DNA of 43,430 nucleotides from a virus: the IMG/VR virus record IMGVR_UViG_3300003775_000002. One strand, given 5' to 3'. This document shows positions 1,358 through 43,430 of the stretch, in pieces. How positions within the stretch are numbered: the first letter of the stretch is position 1; each line of letters starts with the position of its first letter. The notes beneath the pieces were generated by a model. The model did no database searches. It was not told the origin of the DNA and saw only the letters and a program-made list of their open reading frames with translations. The translations under genes and the position numbers were made by a program.

Positions 1358-1614
1358 GCTGCGCGTCCTTGGAACGTGACCTTGCGGAGCGCCGGCCGCG
1401 CGGTGGGCGTGAGCGGCACCACTTCGGCATTGCCCACGCCGGCCTTCTTGGCCTCCAGCGCGCGATAGGTTTCCCAGGTCATCATGACCCGGCCGTCGCC
1501 GCGGCGCAGCGTCTCGATCCGGAACGCGGCTTCCAGCCAGCGCGCCTGTGCGGACCAGCGCTTCTTGCCGGTCAGCTCCTGCAGGTCTCCTTCGGTCATC
1601 CATCCGGTCTTCAT
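1354..1614 (-). CDS. Excisionase-like DUF4224-type small DNA-binding protein
   Basis: MKTGWMTEGDLQELTGKKRWSAQARWLEAAFRIETLRRGDGRVMMTWETY matches the DUF4224 pattern found upstream of phage integrases. A GGGGGA Shine-Dalgarno lies 7 nt before the ATG at 1614. The gene is translationally coupled to int. Confidence 0.65.
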   Translation of the reverse strand: MKTGWMTEGDLQELTGKKRWSAQARWLEAAFRIETLRRGDGRVMMTWETYRALEAKKAGVGNAEVVPLTPTARPALRKVTFQGRAA

Positions 1615-1691
1615 TTGTCGATCCCCCAAAGGCTGCGGGTCATTTCGATGATGCGTACTACTGCGTCGATCATTGGTCGATCTATGGTGAA

Positions 1692-2126
1692 TTATTGGTT
1701 TTGAATAATTTGGGATAAAACGTCGGCCGGTACGTCGAAGAAGCCAAGCCGGCCGGCCAGCGGCGTGAAGGGCAGGGGCTGGGCGTTCCGCAAGGCGAAA
1801 CCTTGGCAGTCGGGCATGTGCCAGAACGACGTCCGGCGTTCTGGCGGTACGCAGCCGATCACCTCGGCCACGCCGACGATGCCGCCGCGCTGCAGATCCT
1901 CAAACCGAGGGAAGCGGGCACGAATGCCGGCGCGCTCCAATGACTGCCGCGCCACGCTGTACTCCGCCTTGGTCATGCCCTTGGCCGCGTGGATCAGCAG
2001 AGGCCCGCGGAATCGCGTGGCCCACGACCGGTTCTCGATGTCCTTGTGGCCGTTGACGATCAGCCAGGCCCAGGGCTGGCGGATGGACAGGGCTTTGGTG
2101 GGAAGGGGGCGGGTCAGGGTCTTCAT
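1692..2126 (-). CDS. ASCH-domain protein
   Basis: This is the C-terminal 144 aa of ORF 1692..2816, starting MKTLTRPLPTKALSIRQPWAWLIVNGHKDIENRSW. That is a typical ASCH N-terminal beta-barrel signature. The upstream part of the long ORF is Arg/Ala-rich junk. Confidence 0.7.
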   Translation of the reverse strand: MKTLTRPLPTKALSIRQPWAWLIVNGHKDIENRSWATRFRGPLLIHAAKGMTKAEYSVARQSLERAGIRARFPRFEDLQRGGIVGVAEVIGCVPPERRTSFWHMPDCQGFALRNAQPLPFTPLAGRLGFFDVPADVLSQIIQNQ

Positions 2127-2142
2127 GCGAACAGGTCTCCAA

Positions 2143-2412
2143 TCAAAACTCGAAGCTATCCTGCGTCGGGGCGCCGATGCGCTTGAAAAGCGCCTGGTGC
2201 TCGGGGCAGTAGTGGACGTCGTGGCCGGCCTCGTGCGCATGCATGCTGCACAGGTGCCGGTCGCAGGTTTTGCCGGGCGCGACAGGGTAGTCGCACTGGA
2301 ACGCGCTCGGCATGCGGCAACTGTCTGCCGTGCAACGAGGGGCAGCGCTGCGCTTGCGCGAGCAGATGAAGCCGCGCAGGCCGTCGGGTGTTTGGAATGG
2401 GGTGCAGGGCAT
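2143..2412 (-). CDS. Cys/His-rich small protein, probably zinc-binding
   Basis: MPCTPFQTPDGLRGFICSRKRSAAPRCTADSCRMPSAFQCDY...CDRHLCSMHAHEAGHDVHYCPEH. A GAGG Shine-Dalgarno lies 7 nt before the ATG at 2412. Confidence 0.6.
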   Translation of the reverse strand: MPCTPFQTPDGLRGFICSRKRSAAPRCTADSCRMPSAFQCDYPVAPGKTCDRHLCSMHAHEAGHDVHYCPEHQALFKRIGAPTQDSFEF

Positions 2413-2456
2413 GAGCAAACCTCAAGGTTTCCGTCCTGACTGCCGATACGGCAGAC

Positions 2457-2714
2457 ATGGATATGCGCAAAGAACTGATTGAGATCCTCGGCCCTGATGC
2501 CGGCCCCGAGACCGCCGATAAGGTCATGGCTCTGACCTTGGATCTGCGGGCGAAGATGGATGCCATTAACGTCATACGGAAGGCCACCGGCCAAATCTCC
2601 ATCCAAGAGGAGATCGATCGGGACATGGAAGATCTTCGGCAGATGGTGGCCGAGGGCATCCTGCCGCCCGAGGAAATTGAGGGGCTGTTCGACGACGATG
2701 GCAAGCTGCTCTAG
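2457..2714 (+). CDS. Highly acidic 85-aa helical protein, hypothetical
   Basis: The plus-strand frame has strongly G/C-biased third positions and balanced composition (21 D/E against 10 K/R). The overlapping minus ORF 2156..2704 is Arg/Ser junk. The gene converges on the methyltransferase stop codon 12 bp away. Confidence 0.65.
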   Translation: MDMRKELIEILGPDAGPETADKVMALTLDLRAKMDAINVIRKATGQISIQEEIDRDMEDLRQMVAEGILPPEEIEGLFDDDGKLL

Positions 2715-2725
2715 TCGCGTCTGAA

Positions 2726-3790
2726 TCACGGCGCGACCTCCAACACAAAGCCCGGCTGGCGCGTCCGCTCTGCCTGCAGCGCGATATATTCGGGATTCAA
2801 CTCGGCGCCGAGCCACCGGCGGCCGAGCCGCTGCGCGACACTAGCTACCGTGCCCGAGCCCATGAACGGGTCGAAGACGATGTCGCCGGGCCGGCTGCCC
2901 GCCAACACGCAGGGTTCGACCAGCGCTTCCGGGAAGGTGGCGAAGTGCGCGCCGTCGAACGATTGTGTCGGGATGCTCCAGACGCTGCGACGGTTGCGCG
3001 TGTCGACCAGCCCGTTCACCGAGCCCGAGAACGACACGTTCTGTTTCACGCGCGGCTTGGCCGCCTTGTCATAGCCGCGGCCAAAGCCCACGCCGGTGCC
3101 GGTATATCGGCCCGTCAGCTCGCGGTGGCCACCCGGCGCCGTGTCCCATCCGCTGGGCATGGCCTTCGGGTTGACGCCAGATCCCCGCGCGTGCGCCGTG
3201 CCGCTGACCGGCTCCTGCATGGCGTCGAAGTCGTAGAAGTACTTCTCGCTCTTGGTCAGCAGGAACAGGTACTCGTGCGCTTTGGTGCAGCGGTCGCGCA
3301 CACTCTCTGGCATCGGGTTGGGCTTGTGCCAAATGATGTCCTGACGGAGCCACCAGCCGGCGTCCTGCAACGCAAACGCAAGGCGCCACGGCTGGCCCAC
3401 TAGGTCTTTCGGCTTCAGCCCTTCGACGCGCACGTCGCTGCGCGGGATCGACGTATCGTCGCGTCGACGGCTGGCCGTCATGGCTCGCGCCTTAGTTGAG
3501 GCCGGCGACGGCCCCCATGCCGCGCCGCGCGTGCCGGCGTAGCTGTCGCCCATGTTCAGCCACAGCGTTCCGTCGTCGGCGAGCAACTGCCGACAAAGAT
3601 CGAAGACGTCAACCATCCCGGCTATGAACTCCGGCAGCGTGGCCTCGAGGCCCAGTTGTCCATCGACGCCATAGTCGCGCAGACCCCAGTAGGGCGGGCT
3701 GGTGACGATGCATTGCACGCGCACGTCATCGGCGATCAGCGATCGCATGACCTCGCGGCAGTCGCCCTGGTAGCAGTGGTCGGTCAGCAT
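2726..3790 (-). CDS. DNA methyltransferase, amino-methyltransferase type (N4-C or N6-A), SPPY motif
   Basis: ORF trimmed to the ATG at 3790 (MLTDHCYQGDCREVM). It has the catalytic motif IVTSPPYW and a C-terminal AdoMet motif VFDPFMGSGTV (beta-class order). A GGAGG Shine-Dalgarno lies upstream. No cognate endonuclease is visible. Confidence 0.85.
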   Translation of the reverse strand: MLTDHCYQGDCREVMRSLIADDVRVQCIVTSPPYWGLRDYGVDGQLGLEATLPEFIAGMVDVFDLCRQLLADDGTLWLNMGDSYAGTRGAAWGPSPASTKARAMTASRRRDDTSIPRSDVRVEGLKPKDLVGQPWRLAFALQDAGWWLRQDIIWHKPNPMPESVRDRCTKAHEYLFLLTKSEKYFYDFDAMQEPVSGTAHARGSGVNPKAMPSGWDTAPGGHRELTGRYTGTGVGFGRGYDKAAKPRVKQNVSFSGSVNGLVDTRNRRSVWSIPTQSFDGAHFATFPEALVEPCVLAGSRPGDIVFDPFMGSGTVASVAQRLGRRWLGAELNPEYIALQAERTRQPGFVLEVAP

Positions 3791-3825
3791 GCTAGGATGC
3801 CTCCATCCAAAAGAAGGAGACTTCC

Positions 3826-4050
3826 ATGACCAGGGAGCCGTTTGTGCTGAAAGGCGAACACGTTTCCGTAGCCCTTTACATCGTGGATGCACCGGAAGGC
3901 CGCTTCGCATGGGAAATTGTCGTGACCGAGGACGGGGGTGACGAGATGATCGACAGGAAAATTGTCGGCTCCCTGAGCTACTCGACGCTGCAGGAAGCGG
4001 ACAAGGCCGGCAAGGAAATGCAGGCAAAGGTTGCAAAGGGCGCGGCGTAA
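3826..4050 (+). CDS. Hypothetical 74-aa protein
   Basis: A strong AAGGAGA Shine-Dalgarno lies 6 nt before the ATG. The sequence is plausible for a globular protein (FAWEIVVTEDGGDEMIDRKIVGSLSYSTLQEADKAGKEM) and faintly resembles YegP/DUF1508. Its stop is 2 bp from the stop of the convergent C5 methyltransferase. Confidence 0.7.
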   Translation: MTREPFVLKGEHVSVALYIVDAPEGRFAWEIVVTEDGGDEMIDRKIVGSLSYSTLQEADKAGKEMQAKVAKGAA

Positions 4051-4052
4051 CA

Positions 4053-4967
4053 TCACGCTGCCTCCCGAATTGCCGTGATCACGTCGCGCGCCACAGGCGG
4101 GCACACGGCGTTGCCCAGCAGATGCACGGCAGTGCGGTGCTGCTGTGGCAGTCGATAGTCAGCAGGGAAGCCCATGGCGGCGCGGCACTCGTCTGCGCGC
4201 AGCATACGCATGCGGTCGCCGTCGACGATTCCCCAGCGATCGCGCGTGGTAATGGTGCCCAGCGGTCGAGTCAGCGACCGGCCGCCTAGCTCATTTCCGT
4301 AGTAGGCGGTCAGGAACCGATCACCGTGCGCGCGGCGGCCATTCGCGATGCGGCTGAGCGTGGCAGCGGCCCGGCCCGGCTTCTCGATCGCTGACCAGTT
4401 GCCCGCAGCGAAGTCGATGATATCGGCGGCCGGCACATGTTGGCGCTGGGGCAGCTGCAGCATGAGCGGCCGTTCGCTGCGGCTCAGGACCAGGTACAGG
4501 CGCTCACGGTGCTGCGGCACTCCGTGATCTGCCGCATCGATGATGTGCGGCGCGACCTGATACCCCAGCGCCTGCAGCGCGAGGCGCCACGCGGGGTACA
4601 ACTTCCATTGGACGAACTCTGGCACGTTCTCGACGACACCGAACGACGGGCGGTGGTACTCGAGCGCGGACACGACAGCCCACGCTGTCGAGCGGCTGGC
4701 GTCGTGCTGCGGGTTGTTGGCGGACTTGCCGCGGGCCTTGCTGTGGCCTTGGCAGCAGGGCGACGCGAGCAGGATGTCGTGCGCCGGCACCTGTTCCCAG
4801 TTCGCCTGGTGCAGGTCTTGGCAGACGTGCTCCGTACCCGGGTGATTTGCCGCGTGCGTCTCCACGGCCACGGGCCAGTGGTTGCCTGCCCAGACCACCT
4901 GCACGCCGGCCATCTGCGCTCCCGTGGAAAAGCCGCCGGCGCCTGCGAAGAGGTCGATCGCCTTCAT
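4053..4967 (-). CDS. DNA (cytosine-5)-methyltransferase
   Basis: Motif I DLFAGAGGFS, motif IV SPCCQGHS (catalytic Cys) and motif VI VVENVPEF are present, with GNAVCPPV near the C terminus. Confidence 0.9.
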   Translation of the reverse strand: MKAIDLFAGAGGFSTGAQMAGVQVVWAGNHWPVAVETHAANHPGTEHVCQDLHQANWEQVPAHDILLASPCCQGHSKARGKSANNPQHDASRSTAWAVVSALEYHRPSFGVVENVPEFVQWKLYPAWRLALQALGYQVAPHIIDAADHGVPQHRERLYLVLSRSERPLMLQLPQRQHVPAADIIDFAAGNWSAIEKPGRAAATLSRIANGRRAHGDRFLTAYYGNELGGRSLTRPLGTITTRDRWGIVDGDRMRMLRADECRAAMGFPADYRLPQQHRTAVHLLGNAVCPPVARDVITAIREAA

Positions 4968-4998
4968 GCTAGGATGCCTCGCAAAAATGGGGGATTGA

Positions 4999-5664
4999 AT
5001 GGACGAGATCAGATACCGATACTTCGTGACGATCCTGTGCGCGTGCGGGTGCGTGGCACTGGCAGGTTGGGCGCTCTACCTGTGGCAGCCCAGCGGCAGC
5101 GAGGAAGTCGCATCGTGGATTCAGGCAGTCGGCTCTATCGCCGCTATCGGGATCGCCGTCTATGCCGCAAGAATCCAAACTTCCTCGGCACAACGGCAGG
5201 CAAATCTGGCGCTGTTGCAGGCCCACGAAGGTAAATTGCGATCGCTCATCGCAATCATGTTTCCCGCCTACGAGTTGTTCCACGAGGCGCATGCCCATGT
5301 AAAGAGCGTGCGCTCGTGTGAGGCATTCAGGCAAACCTTCGAGGTGTATCGATTTCAGGAACTGGACGAGCTTCTGAGTGCAGTTCCGATTCACGAGCTC
5401 GGCTCCTTTAAATCTGCGAGAGCGATCCTCAACGTCCGACGAGCCATCCGAAGAATTCAGTCGTGCATTGCTGTACGTGAGTATCTTGTGCCAGGAATGG
5501 CGGAAAGCGAGGAGTACTTCAAGCTCGTCGGAGAATCCGAGGTATGCATGACCATCGTCGGCGCGGCCTATGATCTCCACAATGATGCTGTAAGAGAGGC
5601 CGAGAAGACTCGTCTGAACTACTTTTTCAGAGTGACCGAGGAAAGCCCGGCTAGCGAAGGCTGA
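4999..5664 (+). CDS. Membrane protein with two N-terminal TM helices and a helical soluble domain; candidate exclusion/abortive-infection gene
   Basis: A GGGGGA Shine-Dalgarno lies 5 nt before the ATG. TM segments are FVTILCACGCVALAGWALYLW and WIQAVGSIAAIGIAVYAA. The 3' two thirds look lower in GC than the neighbours by eye. The gene lies opposite to the early-left operon. The antisense 421-aa ORF is junk. Confidence 0.7.
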   Translation: MDEIRYRYFVTILCACGCVALAGWALYLWQPSGSEEVASWIQAVGSIAAIGIAVYAARIQTSSAQRQANLALLQAHEGKLRSLIAIMFPAYELFHEAHAHVKSVRSCEAFRQTFEVYRFQELDELLSAVPIHELGSFKSARAILNVRRAIRRIQSCIAVREYLVPGMAESEEYFKLVGESEVCMTIVGAAYDLHNDAVREAEKTRLNYFFRVTEESPASEG

Positions 5665-5675
5665 GTTGCTCGCGA

Positions 5676-6434
5676 TCACAGCGTATCCCCCTGCTCGAGC
5701 GCGCCGAGCTCGCCGTGCGCCGGGCAGGGGGCGGACTTTCGGCCCCCCTTGTTGATCTCTGCGTCGATGGCGTTTGTGAAATGCTCGGCCACTGATCCTT
5801 TCATGAGGTCGATCGCGGCACCGAGCACCGGGCTGACATAGAAAACCTGGTATCCGTGCCCGTCGTATCGCGCGCCAATGAATCGCACAGCTGATCTCCA
5901 GCGCGTAGCGTCGTGTGCCATTCGCTGCAGTTGCTCCAGCAGCGTGACGCTGCCGCCGTCGGGCGGGTCCATGTAGTAGGTGCCTGGCAGCAGAGCCACC
6001 AATTGATCGTCCGTCACCGCCTGCGCAGCGGGTGCTGGGGCTGCACACGTGGGGCAATCCTTCACGCATTGAATCGGGCCGTTGCTGAATTCGACGCCAC
6101 CACAGCCGGTGATCTCGCCATCGGCCACCACGCGCGAACCAGCGCAAGTCCCGCAAGTCGTGGCAGGGGCGGGGTTGCAGTTCGGGCAACGCGTGTCCTC
6201 GGCAACGTAGCCGGTTTCTTCGCACACAAGGCACGGCTCACCCGAAGCGCTAGCGAGCGCGCGAATCTCTTCGGCCAGCTCGGTCAGCGTCGTGTAGTGA
6301 TCCATCTTCTCCTGACGGTCAAAGCAAAGGGTACCGGCGACGCCGTAGCCAAATTCATTGGCGAACTCGTCGGCCTTTCCTGCGACAAAATCTGCGGCTT
6401 CTCTCAGCCCGGCTTGTCGTGCGTTGTCGGTCAT
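5676..6434 (-). CDS. Hypothetical protein with a central CxxC-rich zinc-finger-like segment
   Basis: CLVCEETG, CPNC, CGTCAGS and CPTC clusters are present. The frame has good coding character. An ATGA overlap couples it to the upstream gene. Confidence 0.75.
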   Translation of the reverse strand: MTDNARQAGLREAADFVAGKADEFANEFGYGVAGTLCFDRQEKMDHYTTLTELAEEIRALASASGEPCLVCEETGYVAEDTRCPNCNPAPATTCGTCAGSRVVADGEITGCGGVEFSNGPIQCVKDCPTCAAPAPAAQAVTDDQLVALLPGTYYMDPPDGGSVTLLEQLQRMAHDATRWRSAVRFIGARYDGHGYQVFYVSPVLGAAIDLMKGSVAEHFTNAIDAEINKGGRKSAPCPAHGELGALEQGDTL

Positions 6435-6835
6435 GCTGCCTCCTCAAACAGTTCGTCTTCTGCGACTTCCATGCGATGCACCACGCTCGGCAACGTGCAA
6501 CTGGTGGGCATCTCGATTCCCCAGATTCCCAGTAGCGCATCGAAGCTGATGTGCTTCGGTGCCAGCGTCCCAGAGGTGGTCCCGTTGTTGCCGACGCGCT
6601 TCTCTTTGCTCAGCGCGATCAGGCCGTCTCGGTCGACCACTCTGTAGTAGATCCGGTTCTTTCCAGGCTCGTCGGGAGCCGGTCGACTTGCTAAGTACTT
6701 CCGCAATTCGCGCAGTGCGCTATTGGCGCTCGCAGGAACGCACCCGATCTCTTTGGCCAGGAGAGCGCCGCATACCTCGTCGTTCGCGAGCAGCGCATCG
6801 ATGACCAACTTTTTTAGATTCAAGAAGCGGCTCAT
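6431..6835 (-). CDS. Hypothetical protein, possible winged-helix DNA-binding
   Basis: MSRFLNLKKLVIDALLANDEVCGALLAKEIGCVPASANSALRELRKYL resembles a wHTH N-terminal domain. Confidence 0.7.
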   Translation of the reverse strand: MSRFLNLKKLVIDALLANDEVCGALLAKEIGCVPASANSALRELRKYLASRPAPDEPGKNRIYYRVVDRDGLIALSKEKRVGNNGTTSGTLAPKHISFDALLGIWGIEMPTSCTLPSVVHRMEVAEDELFEEAA

Positions 6836-7011
6836 GCCATCCTCCGTTGCATCTTGATCGAGTTGTTACGCAGCATCGCGTTGTTCATCTCAGCGATCTG
6901 GTGGCGCAGGCTCCGGATCTCTTCGGCGGCATCCTTGCGCAGCTGCCGCGCTTCGGAGCTTTCGCAGTATTCGTTGGCTGACTCCAGCCGTTCGACGATA
7001 TCGGTGCTCAT
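6832..7011 (-). CDS. Hypothetical 59-aa coiled-coil protein, below the ORF-track length cutoff
   Basis: My translation is MSTDIVERLESANEYCESSEARQLRKDAAEEIRSLRHQIAEMNNAMLRNNSIKMQRRMA. It fills the gap exactly, with ATGA-type overlaps at both ends. Confidence 0.6.
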   Translation of the reverse strand: MSTDIVERLESANEYCESSEARQLRKDAAEEIRSLRHQIAEMNNAMLRNNSIKMQRRMA

Positions 7012-12222: not shown

Positions 12223-13215
12223 TTACAGCCTGTTCTTGATCTTGCGGGCGGGCACCGGGTGGGCGATGTAGTACATCCAGGTGATGGCTTCCGGATCGAA
12301 GGTGAAAACCTCCTGGTCGTTGTAGCTGCCGAGCCTGATGCCCTGGCGGCGCGACAGCAGGCGCTTGATCATCGTTTCGCCAGTGTTCAGCCGCACGAGC
12401 ACGTCGTCTTCGAGCTCCGGCTCGGTGCCCGGCTCGACCAAGGCAAACTCGCCCGGGTTGTAGCGGGGGATCATGGACAGGCCCACGACTGGTGTCAGGA
12501 AGGCCTGCGGATCGGCGCTGGCCACTTCTGCAAACTGCTGAGTTGCTCCCACCGGATAGTCTCCATCGGTCCATATCCGGTCAGGCAGGCCGCCTTGCGC
12601 GCGGCCCACAACCGGAATGGCCCGGTACTTCGCTGTATTCGCCTGATAGGTAAGGGGCGTCGGCTCTGCCGGCTCGTCGTCCGCCTTCTTCTTCGGCCTG
12701 GCGCTCTTGGCGGGCAGCGGCTTTGGCCGGGGATCGTCGAACACGGCAGCACGCGGAGCGCCCTTACCCATGACCAGCCAGACGGCGTTGTAGCCGAATG
12801 CCTCCTGAATGCCCACCGCCTGGTCGAGCCTGATCGTCTTGACCTCGCCTGACGCCCATTGCTCCAGCGTCTCTAGCGAAACGCCGGCGGCCTTGGCCAG
12901 AGCATACGGCTTGATATCGGCGTCGGCCAGGAGTGTCTTCATCCGTTCGCTCAGCCCATTGTCCACGTCGGTCGCCGGCTCCAGGCTGGCGTCATACGCC
13001 ATTGAACCCTTGCCCGTCTGCAGCCAAGTGGCGCTGCAGCCGATCAGCTTCTGGGCTTCGATCATTCCCGGCCGCGACATGCCGCGGCGCTCCCAGTTGT
13101 TGATCGTTTGCTGGGATTGGTTGAGGGCCTTCGCTATGTCGGTAGGCGTGGGCTGCTCTTGGAGCCCTCTCAGGGTGCGTACTGCCTCGTAGAGGCGAAC
13201 CATCGTTGCGTGCAT
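12223..13215 (-). CDS. CI-like prophage repressor with two tandem XRE-type HTH domains and a C-terminal S24 (LexA-like) autopeptidase domain
   Basis: HTH 1 is PTDIAKALNQSQQTINNWERRG. HTH 2 is PYALAKAAGVSLETLEQWASGE. The S24 domain has the Ser motif VVGLSMIP and the Lys motif ETMIKRL. The start is uncertain: the ORF is open to 13299 (AGGTGG Shine-Dalgarno), but 13216..13299 holds the OR operators. ATG 13215 or 13203 is therefore preferred. Confidence 0.85.
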   Translation of the reverse strand: MHATMVRLYEAVRTLRGLQEQPTPTDIAKALNQSQQTINNWERRGMSRPGMIEAQKLIGCSATWLQTGKGSMAYDASLEPATDVDNGLSERMKTLLADADIKPYALAKAAGVSLETLEQWASGEVKTIRLDQAVGIQEAFGYNAVWLVMGKGAPRAAVFDDPRPKPLPAKSARPKKKADDEPAEPTPLTYQANTAKYRAIPVVGRAQGGLPDRIWTDGDYPVGATQQFAEVASADPQAFLTPVVGLSMIPRYNPGEFALVEPGTEPELEDDVLVRLNTGETMIKRLLSRRQGIRLGSYNDQEVFTFDPEAITWMYYIAHPVPARKIKNRL

Positions 13216-13249
13216 GCGCGGGATGCTCTCACAGGTAAACGGATCGTTG

Positions 13250-13291
13250 ATAAACAGCGCGTTTGCCTTTTCCTTAAACATGGTGTTTAAT
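13250..13291 (+). promoter_or_regulatory. Predicted PR promoter with two 17-bp operators (OR)
   Basis: TTGCCT (13263..13268) is followed by a 17-nt spacer and TTTAAT (13286..13291). The operators are ATAAACAgcgCGTTTGC (13250..13266) and the perfect palindrome TTAAACAtggTGTTTAA (13274..13290), with centres 24 bp apart. Confidence 0.65.
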
Positions 13292-13322
13292 CTCGTCATG
13301 GACCACCTACCGAGAGCCCGAG

Positions 13323-13520
13323 ATGGACGATCGCGAACTCATTGAGCGCCATGGCGGCTCGGCCGAATTGGCTCGAAAGCTGCACATGACCAAGCCGGGC
13401 AGCACCCAACGCGTCAACAACTGGAAGACGCGGGGTATCCCGCCGGCCGTCAAGCTGGAACGCCAGGACCTGTTTTCCGCAGAAGCCGTCGCGAAGCTCC
13501 CGTTACCGGTGGCCGCCTGA
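13323..13520 (+). CDS. Cro-like / YdaS-type HTH regulator
   Basis: GGSAELARKLHMTKPGSTQRVNNWKTRGIPP. It is divergent from the repressor and is the first gene after the predicted PR. Confidence 0.7.
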   Translation: MDDRELIERHGGSAELARKLHMTKPGSTQRVNNWKTRGIPPAVKLERQDLFSAEAVAKLPLPVAA

Positions 13521-19952: not shown

Positions 19953-19969
19953 ACGGACAACAGTCCGAT
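19953..19969 (+). repeat. 17-nt hairpin motif ACGGACAACAGTCCGAT, copy 1
   Basis: Identical to 36839..36855. It has a CGGAC/GTCCG stem with an AACA loop. It starts 2 nt after the terL stop. Confidence 0.6.
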
Positions 19970-24484: not shown

Positions 24485-24787
24485 ATGGCTCTCTATCGCG
24501 CACTACGCCGCGGCCAGATCCACCTGGATGCCACCCCTGCCAAGCGCGGGGATGACGTCCTCGGAGAGCGCCGCGTGGTCAAGATCGTCGAGCCCGGCGA
24601 GATCTTCGAATTTCATGGCAAGAAGCCTGGAACGTGGATGGTTCCGGTGGATGTCCAAGAAGACGATGACGAGCCGGCCGGCGACGACAAGCCGGGCACC
24701 CCCCAGGGGGAGTCCGGTGGGCGCCACGGGACGAGGTCGACATCGAGAGGCTCACCCAAAGAGCCGGCCGGCGACGACAAGCCATAA
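24485..24787 (+). CDS. Hypothetical protein with duplicated EPAGDDKP tail
   Basis: The frame has G/C-biased third positions. It contains a 23-bp direct repeat (24671..24693 and 24761..24783). Confidence 0.6.
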   Translation: MALYRALRRGQIHLDATPAKRGDDVLGERRVVKIVEPGEIFEFHGKKPGTWMVPVDVQEDDDEPAGDDKPGTPQGESGGRHGTRSTSRGSPKEPAGDDKP

Positions 24788-34323: not shown

Positions 34324-36837
34324 ATGACACCGCAATGCCGCACTGCCGTCAGTGCCGCCGCTGGCCGGCCGCTGACGGACGCCGAGGTCAAGAAGATCGA
34401 TGATCGGCTATCAGCCACCATGCGCCAGATGGCGCGCCGTGACCCGGCCGCGTGGCAGGCCATGCCCCTGTCGCAGCGTGTGCTGGACGCCTCCCGCGAG
34501 GCGATGGCCCAGATCCAGCAAGAGGCCGCGCTGAAGGTCACGCGCGCCAGCCTGCAAGTGATCAAGACGGCGGCCATGGATACCCGCGTCACTGACCTGA
34601 TGACGCAGTTTTCCGAAGGCCGTAGCAAGGCTCTGGTCCGGGAAATGGACCTGACGTCGGCCTACGCCGAGGGCGTCAAGCGCGAGAACATGTCTCAGTT
34701 GATGGATCTGCTCGATGCTGCCGACAGCCGGCAGGGCGCGGGGGCGATCCGGCGTGGTCTGATGTTCCTGTTTGACGCCGAAAACCCTGGCATGACCCGT
34801 GATCTGGCCGTCGAAATAATTGCCAACGCCAATGGCGCCACGGGAAACACGCTCGCACAGAAGGGTGCCAAGGCGTGGCTGGACACCATCGAGCGAATGC
34901 GCCAACGCTTCAACACCTCAGGCGGAGATGTCGGCCAGCTCGACTATGGCTACCTGCCGCAGCCGCACGACAACGTGCGCGTGCGCGGTGATGGCTCCAA
35001 CGCGGCGCGCGCCGCATGGGCGAACAACACCCTGCCGCTGCTCGATCGCAGCCAGTACGTGCGCGAAGATGGCGCCCGCATGAACGATGCCGAAGTTCTG
35101 GACTTCCTGCGCGAGGCCTGGACGACCATTGCCACGGATGGCCTTAACAAGACGACACCGGGTAGCCGGCCAGCACCGGGCAGCGCCGCGCGCGCGAATG
35201 CCGGCAGCGCGACACGCCAGATCCACTACCGCGACGGGAATGCCTATCTGGAATACATGGGGCAGTACGGCGCGGGCAGCATGTACGACGCCATGCTAGG
35301 GCACGTCGGCAGGTTGGCGCGCGACATCGCGCTGGTCGAGCGATACGGCCCCAACCCGAATCAGCAGATGCGTCTGCAGTTTGACTTGGCTGCTCGGGCC
35401 GACAACGGGCTGAAGCGCTCGTTCGGGATGCTGCCGCAGTCGTATTGGGACGTCCTGAACGGCACCAGCAGCGCGCCAGTCAGCGGCCGCATTGCAGAGA
35501 TCGGCACGCATGCCCGGAACATCCAGACCTTCGGCAAGCTGCAGGGTGCCATCCTGTCCAGCGTGACCGACGTCGGCACGTATTTCGTGACCACCGGATT
35601 CAACAATCTCAGCTACTGGGACGCGCTGCGCAACATCCCCCGCCAGATGAGCGGCGATACCCGCGACTTTCTGTCCATGCACGGCATCATCGCCGAGTCG
35701 ATGATCTCAGACCTGAACCGTTGGAGCGGGGACAACATTCGGCAGACCTGGTCGGGCAGGCTGGCCAACAGCACGATGAAGCTGTCGTTCATGAACGTCT
35801 GGACCGACACGCTGCGCCGTGCCTACAGCATGACCATGATGAACGGCATGGCCAAGCTGGCGAAAACGGACTGGAAGGGCCTGACCGAATACGACCGCTG
35901 GCGCATGACAAGCAAGGGCCTGACCGAATCGGATTGGGATGTCATCCGCCAGGCCCAGTTGACTGCCTACAACGGCCAGGATTTTCTGACGCCAGAGTCT
36001 ATCCGCGCCGGCGGCGACCCGCGCGCCAACGAGGTGGTGGCCAAGGTGCTGGGGCTGATCACCGACGAGTCGGAATATGCAGTGCTGAACCCGGACCTGT
36101 CTACCAAGGCATTGCAGTCGTGGGGCGGCACGCAGCGCGGCACGCCGCTGGGCGAGCTGGCGCGCTCAGTGATGCAGTTCAAGTCGTTCCCGATCGCTAT
36201 GATCTCGCGGCACTGGGGAAGGTTCACCGATGCTCCCGGTGGCATCCCTGGCGCGCCTACGTTTCTCGGCAACCGTGGCTTCTACGGCGCGGCGATGATG
36301 GTGTCGCTTACCGCGCTGGGTGCGATCGCCTTCCAGAACAAGCAACTGGTGCAAGGCAAAGACGCGATCGACATGGACCCGTTCGAAAACCCGAAATTCT
36401 GGCTGCGTGCGTTGGCGCAAGGCGGCGGCCTCGGTATCGTGGGCGACTTCCTGTTGACCGACCCTACCGAGAACCCGGGTGACTCCACGGCCAACGCTAT
36501 CAAGAACGTTGCCGGGCCCAGCATCGGCAGCGCGTTCGACCTGGTGGGCAAGCTGGGCATCGAGAACGTCTATCAGGCGGCGCACGGCAAGGACACGCAT
36601 GTGGGCGCCGAGACGCTGCGTTTCGCGCGTAACCACCTGCCGTATGTGAATCTCTGGTACGGCAAGGCCGCACTGGACGCAGCGGGTCTGGCCGCGTTGC
36701 AGGAGAACCTGTCGCCTGGATACCACTCGAAAATGCGCCAGCGCGCGCAGCGCGATTGGAACCAGGATTACTGGTGGCGGCCGGGCGAGCCAACGCCTGA
36801 AAGGGCGCCGGATATCGGTGCGGCATTCGGCAGGTAA
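34324..36837 (+). CDS. Large internal virion / ejection protein
   Basis: ORF trimmed to the ATG at 34324 (MTPQCRTAVSAAAGRPLTDAEVKKIDDRL). A GGGAG Shine-Dalgarno is present. 837 aa. Confidence 0.6.
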   Translation: MTPQCRTAVSAAAGRPLTDAEVKKIDDRLSATMRQMARRDPAAWQAMPLSQRVLDASREAMAQIQQEAALKVTRASLQVIKTAAMDTRVTDLMTQFSEGRSKALVREMDLTSAYAEGVKRENMSQLMDLLDAADSRQGAGAIRRGLMFLFDAENPGMTRDLAVEIIANANGATGNTLAQKGAKAWLDTIERMRQRFNTSGGDVGQLDYGYLPQPHDNVRVRGDGSNAARAAWANNTLPLLDRSQYVREDGARMNDAEVLDFLREAWTTIATDGLNKTTPGSRPAPGSAARANAGSATRQIHYRDGNAYLEYMGQYGAGSMYDAMLGHVGRLARDIALVERYGPNPNQQMRLQFDLAARADNGLKRSFGMLPQSYWDVLNGTSSAPVSGRIAEIGTHARNIQTFGKLQGAILSSVTDVGTYFVTTGFNNLSYWDALRNIPRQMSGDTRDFLSMHGIIAESMISDLNRWSGDNIRQTWSGRLANSTMKLSFMNVWTDTLRRAYSMTMMNGMAKLAKTDWKGLTEYDRWRMTSKGLTESDWDVIRQAQLTAYNGQDFLTPESIRAGGDPRANEVVAKVLGLITDESEYAVLNPDLSTKALQSWGGTQRGTPLGELARSVMQFKSFPIAMISRHWGRFTDAPGGIPGAPTFLGNRGFYGAAMMVSLTALGAIAFQNKQLVQGKDAIDMDPFENPKFWLRALAQGGGLGIVGDFLLTDPTENPGDSTANAIKNVAGPSIGSAFDLVGKLGIENVYQAAHGKDTHVGAETLRFARNHLPYVNLWYGKAALDAAGLAALQENLSPGYHSKMRQRAQRDWNQDYWWRPGEPTPERAPDIGAAFGR

Positions 36838-43321: not shown

Positions 43322-43355
43322 AAAAAACGGCCTGCGTCTTTCGACACAAGCCGTT
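43322..43355 (-). terminator. Rho-independent terminator of the tRNA-Pro gene
   Basis: The minus strand reads AACGGCTTGTGTC GAAA GACGCAGGCCGTT TTTT. This is a 13-bp stem including two G-U pairs, a GAAA loop and a six-T run whose first two T pair in the stem. It lies about 30 nt downstream of the tRNA CCA end. Confidence 0.75.
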
Positions 43356-43430
43356 GATTCCATTACCTTTTACCACTGCAAATACTGGTCGGAGCGATAG
43401 GATTCGAACCTACGACCCTCTGATCCCAAA
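43330..43430. repeat. attR copy of the 101-bp att duplication
   Basis: Identical to 1..101. Confidence 0.9.
43386..43430 (-). tRNA. tRNA-Pro(UGG), 3' 45 nt only; the gene continues beyond the window edge
   Basis: It has the same 45 nt as 57..101 (anticodon loop UUUGGGA, T arm, acceptor with G72/A73, CCA). The 5' half would lie to the right of 43430 and cannot be seen. Confidence 0.7.

Follow-up and report, generated by a model that had tools for sequence, protein, structure and literature searches.

A short promoter-like junction motif recurs beside antisense accessory genes in prophage early operons

Why are three plus-strand genes lodged in an early operon that runs on the minus strand, and why do two of them begin beside the same 16 nucleotides? 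These questions are raised by positions 2413–5664 of the IMG/VR virus record IMGVR_UViG_3300003775_000002, a stretch of 43,430 nucleotides (nt) that we call the window. Here genes for proteins of 85, 74 and 221 amino acids (aa) lie amid minus-strand early genes, and two DNA methyltransferase genes start within an identical 16-nt block. An initial annotation read this arrangement as a duplicated cassette, a methyltransferase paired with a divergent small gene, which could form a regulatory or defence/anti-defence module. Our comparisons point elsewhere. We assign a probability of about 0.65 to the reading that the block combines a −10-type promoter for antisense morons (accessory genes between phage genes, as reportedly defined by Hendrix and colleagues), the translation start of the minus-strand neighbour, and a point at which cassettes are exchanged.

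The 16-mer, CATGCTAGGATGCCTC, occurs exactly twice in the window, at 3788–3803 (copy 1) and 4965–4980 (copy 2) on the plus strand. The identity had been reported correctly in the initial annotation, with coordinates one base too low. The core of the block is CATGCTAGGAT, within which we also refer to a core TGCTAGGAT at 3790–3798 and 4967–4975. CAT within each copy is the complement of a methyltransferase ATG, and read on the minus strand the block gives GAGG, a 9-nt spacer and ATG, the translation start of the N6/N4 (SPPY-type) DNA methyltransferase at copy 1 (2726–3790, minus strand) and of the C5 cytosine DNA methyltransferase at copy 2 (4053–4967, minus strand). On the other side both copies are followed, as had been noted, by CAAAA, a Shine-Dalgarno sequence and the ATG of a plus-strand gene: the 74-aa gene (3826–4050) after copy 1 and the 221-aa gene (4999–5664) after copy 2. 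The two direct copies thereby flank 3804–4964, the segment with the 74-aa gene and the C5 methyltransferase. Neither copy adjoins a stem-loop or a T-run. The window holds no further copy at up to two mismatches to the 16-mer, and one-mismatch 9-mers occur in it at the chance rate.

Identity over 16 nt says little in itself. A repeated exact 16-mer arises in 61% of Markov-simulated windows, and on that ground we rejected any significance drawn from the match alone. We judge the block meaningful because both copies are in register with start codons and because the motif recurs with the same architecture in many genomes.

A first viral scan found the motif in several high-GC contigs, always in the same layout. 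Searching high-GC viral contigs with the 14-mer TGCTAGGATTCCTC gave 36 distinct matches; CA preceded 30, and nearly all of these 30 ran on into a purine-rich, Shine-Dalgarno-like stretch and a start codon. Low-GC contigs, our internal control, gave 34 matches, with CA before 0/34 and the layout absent, and we took these for chance matches and not for real copies. Among 185,579 species genomes, a query for the block followed by a Shine-Dalgarno sequence and ATG returned 49 loci, 38 of them in Burkholderiales, which together hold 54 copies. These 38 loci fall in Paraburkholderia (19), Cupriavidus (8), Pandoraea (6) and, with one each, Burkholderia, Caballeronia, Trinickia, Herbaspirillum and Noviherbaspirillum. 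Wherever a locus has at least two copies, all are co-oriented (13/13). At 38 of the 54 copies a minus-strand open reading frame (ORF) of at least 60 aa starts at the CAT, and at most other copies only the 5′ end of such a gene is left; 50 of the 54 are followed by a plus-strand ORF that has a Shine-Dalgarno sequence, its start codon a median of 25 nt after the hexamer (TAGGAT in the block).

The core CATGCTAGGAT thus has a nearly constant place, between a minus-strand start codon and an antisense accessory gene, and its neighbours vary widely. The minus-strand partners include ASCH-like, DUF5131-like, DUF1643-like, Dam-like, PAPS-reductase-like and methyltransferase genes; the plus-strand genes encode highly diverse small proteins or membrane proteins resembling gp50 of phage phi1026b. 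A BLASTN query made of an ASCH gene start plus the block matched cultured phages in its coding part and not in the block, and a literature search for the motif strings returned unrelated primers only. The junction motif is lineage-wide and previously undescribed.

To which of its two neighbours does the block belong? Comparison with other loci (L-numbers below) indicates that it goes with the plus-strand cassette. Three different partners stand upstream of the 74-aa gene, which has the block beside each of them: the N6/N4 methyltransferase in the window, a plus-strand small gene in L004 and a DUF5131-like gene in L031. Nucleotide homology among these three begins exactly at CATGCTAGGAT and stops at the 74-aa stop codon. 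The block or a variant of it also precedes relatives of the 221-aa gene in L032, L124, L140, L154, L157 and phi1026b, and more than 25 unrelated minus-strand genes were found as its partners. The five bases after the core behave differently and track the minus-strand partner, reading GCCTC in 5/5 methyltransferases of the MLT-HCYQGDC type, and the 74-aa cassette is found with both GCCTC and TCCTT after the core. These two observations place the crossovers inside the block. Because homology to both neighbours runs into it, the block would be the overlap zone where modules are joined.

Beside the block, 5′ remnants of about 10–75 codons from methyltransferase or ASCH-like genes often persist with the rest of the gene deleted (L028 983–1040, L026 2512–2555, L120, L125 and L140), and it looks as if the 30–50 bp upstream of the block must be preserved. 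At L023 14723–14956, the ASCH-like gene adjoining the block-bearing region starts MKERP(ILFSGAMVRA)x3, with a 30-nt unit triplicated in frame.

These comparisons bear directly on the duplicated-cassette model. No similarity was found between the two methyltransferases or between the two plus-strand genes, and identity is confined to the block; because the enzymes are unrelated, no methyltransferase-plus-small-gene cassette was duplicated. The plus-strand genes are instead inserted between genes that are adjacent in related phages, as comparison with L013, phiE125 and Acica shows. An orthologue of the C5 methyltransferase in L013 (81% identical) has neither block nor divergent gene, with the next operon gene directly after it, and phiE125, Acica and most methyltransferase relatives in viral contigs likewise form uninterrupted same-strand operons lacking both. 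Between the methyltransferases L013 has another gene than the window, and the gene that follows the block beside the same N6/N4 methyltransferase differs among L013, L023 and L032.

What remains in favour of a defence or anti-defence module, with an acidic DNA mimic and antisense control, is the interleaving of the genes, the lack of terminators, the acidity of the 85-aa protein, and the frequent position of its family next to the 3′ end of this N6/N4 methyltransferase (in the window and L027, and beside a remnant in L028). Yet the 85-aa family occurs without a methyltransferase in L026, the 74-aa family stands beside DUF5131-like, ASCH-like and RdgC contexts, PADLOC found no defence match, and the modelled 85-aa fold matches none of Ocr, ArdA or Arn. 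With both small families found apart from methyltransferases, the idea of a dedicated methyltransferase module did not survive, and what held of the block as a functional element is its tie to the plus-strand genes. The comparative data largely refute the duplicated-cassette model, to which we give scarcely any credence.

If the block travels with the plus-strand gene, it seems most likely to serve that gene's expression. Aligning 70 instances gives the consensus CATGCTAGGAT(T/G)CCTC, with an A-rich patch at +17 to +20 and a Shine-Dalgarno sequence near +26 to +31. Read along the plus strand, TG-C-TAGGAT is shaped like an extended −10 promoter, whose predicted start point falls in the A-rich patch. 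For a sample blind to the motif, we gathered loci by protein similarity to phrog_33632 or gp50 and then examined their upstream regions: TGCTAGGAT or a variant stood in the same place in 27 of 72 distinct upstream regions. The 24 substitutions in these 27 fall at −13 (8), −10 (13), −15 (2) and −9 (1), and none (0/24) at G−14, T−12, A−11, A−8 or T−7, leaving the consensus TGnTAnnAT. This pattern fits an extended −10 promoter and neither a translation start nor a palindromic operator. In seven variants, all upstream of gp50-like genes (L270, L275, L281, L291, L299, L303 and L332), exactly 6 nt separate the hexamer from the ATG and the divergent starts are about 15 nt apart; their sequences are TGCTAAGAT, TGATAAGAT, TGCTACAAT, TGTTATGAT and TGGTAGGAT. 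With this 6-nt gap the first base of the ATG coincides with the position where transcription should begin, as in a leaderless mRNA.

Published evidence on expression comes from phi1026b, whose gp50 gene is a plus-strand gene interleaved in a minus-strand operon, with TGCTAGGAT 27 nt upstream of its likely ATG. In the lysogen Bp DD503, phi1026bp51 (gp50) reached 26,846 reads per kilobase per million mapped reads, and bp49, bp50 and bp52–58 had fewer than 10 reads (PMC2920897, Table 3). The annotated gp50 start is a GTG overlapping TGCTAGGAT (L161 3914–3952, equal to NC_005284 37901–37939); an in-frame ATG 36 nt downstream, preceded by GGGGA, appears the more plausible start.

A different explanation is that the block is chiefly a conserved translation-initiation region of minus-strand early genes, perhaps bound by a phage or host factor or RNA that regulates them together, an idea put forward for the start-associated sequences in Cluster K mycobacteriophages. 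The retention of CA before TGCTAGGAT in 30 of the 36 high-GC matches, which the search did not require, argues for this, as do the CCT (minus-strand AGG) that follows the core in about 63 of 70 instances and the identical 16-nt start regions of the two window methyltransferases. But TGCTAGGAT is kept without an overlapping minus-strand start in L004, phi1026b, L239 and L187, persists in L036 though the Shine-Dalgarno sequence is lost, and stands beside mere 5′ remnants in L026, L028, L120, L125 and L140. Orthologous minus-strand genes that lack a divergent neighbour have no motif, and substitutions spare the promoter positions and not the start codon or Shine-Dalgarno sequence. We consider this explanation unlikely.

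The block could also be an operator or a methylation-sensitive switch, with a regulator or the methyltransferases themselves binding the near-palindrome GCATGCTAGGATGC and so coupling the genes on both strands. Some methyltransferases do regulate themselves at their own promoters, both window copies abut methyltransferase genes, and an imperfect dyad, GCAT-G-CTAG-G-ATGC, surrounds the CTAG centre in these copies. The right arm of this dyad is unconserved, however, most copies reading ...GGATTCCT; most copies adjoin genes of other kinds (ASCH-like, DUF5131-like, PAPS-reductase-like and others); and the window has no other copy, the CI/Cro region included. Such a switch seems to us very unlikely.

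Several observations weigh against the promoter reading as well. No conserved −35 element appears in the 70 aligned instances, and TAGGAT agrees with TATAAT at four of six positions, with a conserved G at −9 that is atypical of sigma-70 promoters. A two-hexamer promoter scan of 1600–7000 gave no match, because such a generic scan requires a −35 hexamer. The 85-aa gene has a different junction, without the block. The paper on phi1026b leaves the strandedness of its RNA-seq unstated (PMC2920897), and recombination at an 11–16-nt joint is deduced solely from homology breakpoints. Lastly, a promoter would be insufficient to account for the CA that completes the minus-strand start codon and is kept in those 30 of 36 unbiased matches. 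Because this CA is kept, and because the same bases give GAGG/AGGA, spacer and ATG on the minus strand, the motif is probably under dual constraint, as a promoter and as a translation start.

We propose the following course of events for the promoter reading. Three independent morons would have inserted antisense, exactly into gene junctions of the operon, and the 74-aa and 221-aa genes would have brought the same short junction module with the core CATGCTAGGAT. On the plus strand, TGcTAGGAT would act as an extended −10 promoter without a −35 element, copy 1 for the 74-aa gene and copy 2 for the 221-aa gene, and a transcript beginning about 7 nt downstream, in the A-rich patch, would have a leader of some 20 nt that includes a Shine-Dalgarno sequence. 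For the minus strand, the block would supply the displaced early gene with the Shine-Dalgarno sequence (GAGG/AGGA), 9-nt spacer and ATG seen in its sequence. Cassettes swapped between phages at the block could have left the two identical copies around the 74-aa gene and the C5 methyltransferase. Expression of the accessory genes would probably go on while the prophage is repressed, as has been published for the homologue in phi1026b. Antisense read-through into the convergent methyltransferases is possible, since no terminator-like site separates the genes.

It is tempting to go further and regard CATGCTAGGAT with its flanks as a bidirectional socket of about 35–40 bp, which would unite a lysogeny promoter lacking a −35 element, a restored translation start and a recombination joint. 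Any cassette would then fit any early-gene junction, the joint perhaps being used by RecT-type recombinases of the phage, and in the absence of terminators antisense transcription would also hold the early methyltransferase genes off in lysogens for as long as induction does not occur. We offer this extension tentatively, as possible and somewhat improbable.

Are the plus-strand frames genes at all? Conservation indicates that they are real, conserved coding genes: ratios of nonsynonymous to synonymous substitution rates (dN/dS) are 0.07–0.21 for the 85-aa and 74-aa families, bearing out the coding assignment of the initial annotation. Their composition is coding-like, with GC content at third codon positions (GC3) above that at second positions (GC2). 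At the same time their GC (0.56–0.58) and GC3 (0.65–0.74; for the 221-aa gene GC 0.56 and GC3 0.65) are low against the GC of 0.64–0.68 and GC3 of 0.83–0.85 of the two methyltransferase, ASCH, Cys-rich and integrase genes, and this lower GC3 points to a foreign origin. Farther right, GC3 is 0.72 in the 252-aa and 134-aa genes. Relatives of the 85-aa and 74-aa genes are likewise on the plus strand, wedged amid minus-strand prophage early genes. No match to either protein was found by tblastn in 50,697 cultured-phage records.

The 85-aa gene (2457–2714) has three homologues at 71–73% identity in the same interleaved position, and with a dN/dS of 0.07–0.21 its family has changed chiefly at third codon positions. 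An 82-aa protein in L032 that resembles it by eye was dismissed as a relative, BLASTP giving no support. The initial annotation had suggested a DNA-mimic anti-restriction protein on account of acidity. The translation does contain 21 D/E against 10 K/R, and acidity is common among small phage proteins. The AlphaFold model is a helical hairpin with a predicted local distance difference test score (pLDDT) of 81; Foldseek gave no match below E = 2 (the best PDB match, at E = 2.1, is not a DNA mimic), and Pfam, PHROG and PADLOC gave none, so that the family and structure search leaves the mimic proposal without a match to the Ocr, ArdA or Arn folds or families.

The junction of the 85-aa gene (2413–2456) carries two boxes of its own, CCTCAAGGTT (2420–2429) and CTGCCGATACG (2440–2450), separated by 10 nt and followed by 6 nt and the ATG, without a Shine-Dalgarno sequence. 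L026, L027 and L028 retain the two boxes with their N6 spacing despite a different minus-strand partner, the Cys-rich gene being absent there and an ASCH-like gene standing in its place. This junction may represent a promoter of another kind, an operator or the start of a leaderless transcript. The second box of the window forms part of a perfect hairpin/palindrome, CTGCCGATACGGCAG (2440–2454).

The 74-aa protein belongs to a tiny family. Its orthologues, in other prophage early operons, share 86%, 76% and 42% identity; a word-indexed search of 5.8 billion proteins found two clusters, and searching 1.84 billion representatives exhaustively yielded just two genuine relatives (P0008 and P0011). 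Matches to giant proteins were set aside as a strand-turn motif in PKD-domain repeats and not homology. Against the 86%-identical orthologue dN/dS is 0.12, and 23 of 36 differences are at third codon positions. The AlphaFold model, of moderate confidence (pLDDT 70.5), has four antiparallel beta strands and a C-terminal helix. Pfam, PHROG and PADLOC offered nothing useful, and the structural search gave weak likenesses: among solved structures the best match is a PUR repeat of Borrelia Pur-alpha, weak at E 0.18 and a template modelling (TM) score of about 0.5, and the best viral structure matches are uncharacterised small phage proteins (TM 0.80, E 1.6e-3). The beta-beta-beta-beta-alpha topology fits a PUR-repeat or Whirly-like fold, though the structural match is weak, and we treat nucleic-acid binding as a weak lead from the model.

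Other small genes at these sites resemble it in outline. Many block-driven small proteins have a beta-rich region and then a C-terminal helix, and ten others that we sampled gave only DUF1488 and weak DUF6566 matches. In L004 a 68-aa plus-strand gene (6215–6421) lies upstream of the 74-aa orthologue (6469–6693) and shows a similar pattern (GGGWKWEITQ against GRFAWEIVV); it may be a tandem paralogue. The gene convergent with that orthologue (L004 6696–6815) is the C-terminus of another, 596-aa type of C5 methyltransferase (compare L032 22–1812), so that in two of four distinct contexts the 74-aa gene lies directly against the 3′ end of a gene for a C5 methyltransferase, though not for the same one. 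Such adjacency might reflect either chance or a weak functional link.

The 221-aa membrane protein has two transmembrane helices, both N-terminal, and a variable cytoplasmic domain, and it appears to be a divergent member of the phi1026b gp50/phrog_33632 family. Its match to phrog_33632 (4.6e-5) covers residues 12–62 only, at the N-terminus; BLASTP aligns it to phi1026b gp50 with 42% identity over 59 aa (E 1e-7), leaving the C-terminal domain unaligned, and to a 211-aa protein of L032 with 25% over 138 aa (E 2e-5). No close homologue was found in the 5.8-billion-protein set. Superinfection exclusion or abortive infection would be a reasonable guess at its role, as for any prophage gene that lysogens express.

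The setting is that of one complete prophage, because an exact 101-nt direct repeat at the two window ends (1–101 and 43330–43430) presumably represents attL and attR. The repeat contains a sequence like a tRNA 3′ end, GGATTCGAACCTACGACC, and ARAGORN found no intact tRNA gene, the repeat holding only a tRNA 3′ fragment. The integrase gene lies at the left end, next to the region studied here, which is the integrase-proximal end of the minus-strand early operon; to the right of this region follow a RecT gene, a YqaJ gene and a CI-like repressor. Likeness to cultured phages is confined to the terminase and portal regions, which match Burkholderia podophages at 73–77% nucleotide identity.

Around the three plus-strand genes, the layout is exactly as first described. 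The 85-aa gene diverges from a Cys-rich 89-aa early gene (2143–2412, minus strand; phrog_13747, function unknown, 2.7e-7), and the 221-aa gene converges on a 252-aa early gene (5676–6434, minus strand) that has no family match above threshold in Pfam, PHROGs or PADLOC. The N6/N4 enzyme matches PF01555 (5.5e-51), phrog_67 (4e-71) and PADLOC MTase_II (3.5e-106), and the C5 enzyme PF00145 (6.4e-45) and phrog_116 (1.8e-81). The divergent start codons are separated by 44, 35 and 31 nt and the tail-to-tail gaps are 11, 2 and 11 nt, in keeping with the spacing given in the initial annotation, which was also right that terminators and a restriction endonuclease are missing: 2413–5664 contains no terminator-like site, and the nine proteins encoded in 1692–6835 gave no restriction-enzyme or other defence match in Pfam, PHROGs or PADLOC. 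The nine likewise gave no helix-turn-helix family match of the kind expected for a controller C protein, and the 74-aa and 85-aa models are not C-protein-like folds.

Farther along, the CI-like repressor (12223–13299, minus strand; S24 peptidase) and a small Cro-like gene (13323–13520, plus strand) have divergent starts just 23 nt apart, and their intergenic region holds no block. Exact direct repeats of 16–23 nt also occur in the structural region, at 19953–19969/36839–36855, at 35875–35890/35914–35929 and at 24671–24693/24761–24783, the last being a 23-mer repeated 90 nt apart.

Little is understood of how morons enter phage genomes and come to be expressed without harm to the operons that they interrupt. 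In prophages of Paraburkholderia, Cupriavidus, Pandoraea and Burkholderia, dozens of unrelated antisense accessory genes are marked by one short, recognisable motif, which provides a sequence handle on lysogeny-expressed accessory genes in genera that include pathogens and plant symbionts. The overlap of a promoter with a divergent translation start is a model open to test, and cassette exchange at very short joints, comparable to that of T4-type phages, finds a tractable system here; the motif also corrects likely mis-annotations such as the phi1026b gp50 start codon set inside the motif.

How does this arrangement compare with known systems? Morons and insertion hot spots have been described for Burkholderia prophages, with no shared motif reported (Ronning et al. 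2010, PMC2920897). The three genes resemble morons in their precise insertion between genes adjacent in relatives, their deviant base composition, slot contents that vary by phage, and the expression of the phi1026b homologue in the lysogen independently of its neighbours. They differ in that all three run against the direction of the operon without terminators of their own, in that the predicted promoter overlaps the neighbour's start codon and Shine-Dalgarno sequence, and in that one specific predicted promoter sequence is common to dozens of unrelated morons in several genera. For gp50 itself, the likeness to the 221-aa protein lies in the N-terminal two-helix membrane region with the motif A-W-V-Q-A-x-G-S-I-A, in the antisense position within a minus-strand operon and in the preceding TGCTAGGAT; the alignment stops after about 60 N-terminal residues, the C-terminal domains are unrelated, and the phi1026b motif lies clear of any minus-strand start codon.

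The methyltransferases and the 85-aa protein have more familiar counterparts. Like phiE125 gp56 and the Acica C5 methylase, with which they share about 70% nucleotide identity, the window enzymes are standard PF01555/PF00145 proteins with no restriction partner nearby, whereas the operons that hold the methyltransferase genes of those phages run on one strand without interruption. The 85-aa protein is small, acidic and helical like the DNA mimics Ocr, ArdA and Arn, yet has neither a family match nor a Foldseek match to a solved mimic.

Start-associated sequences (SAS) of Cluster K mycobacteriophages are motifs of about 13 bp with a Shine-Dalgarno core, placed 3–7 bp upstream of the gene they serve (Pope et al. 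2011, PMC3203893). Like them, our motif is lineage-specific, holds a fixed position at the starts of many unrelated non-structural genes in one orientation, and is nearly absent elsewhere. Unlike SAS, for which no promoter role has been proposed, it overlaps a start codon, is always accompanied by an antisense gene and varies as a promoter would.

The closest mechanistic analogue appears to be the promoter early stem-loop (PeSL) cassette of T4-type phages, in which repeated promoter motifs flank orphan genes and mediate their shuffling (Arbiol et al. 2010, PMC2839356; Comeau et al. 2014, PMC4122927). In both systems a short, repeated motif with a promoter (a predicted one here) flanks variable genes, the copies are co-oriented, and differences between relatives break at the motif, which would imply recombination between copies. 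PeSLs have full sigma-70 −35/−10 boxes and a stem-loop terminator, whereas the block here has an extended −10-like element only and no stem-loop; exchange is proposed here from homology breakpoints and not from mini-circles. Finally, PeSL phages are lytic and carry the motif on the same strand as its neighbours, whereas in these temperate phages the motif overlaps a divergent start codon.

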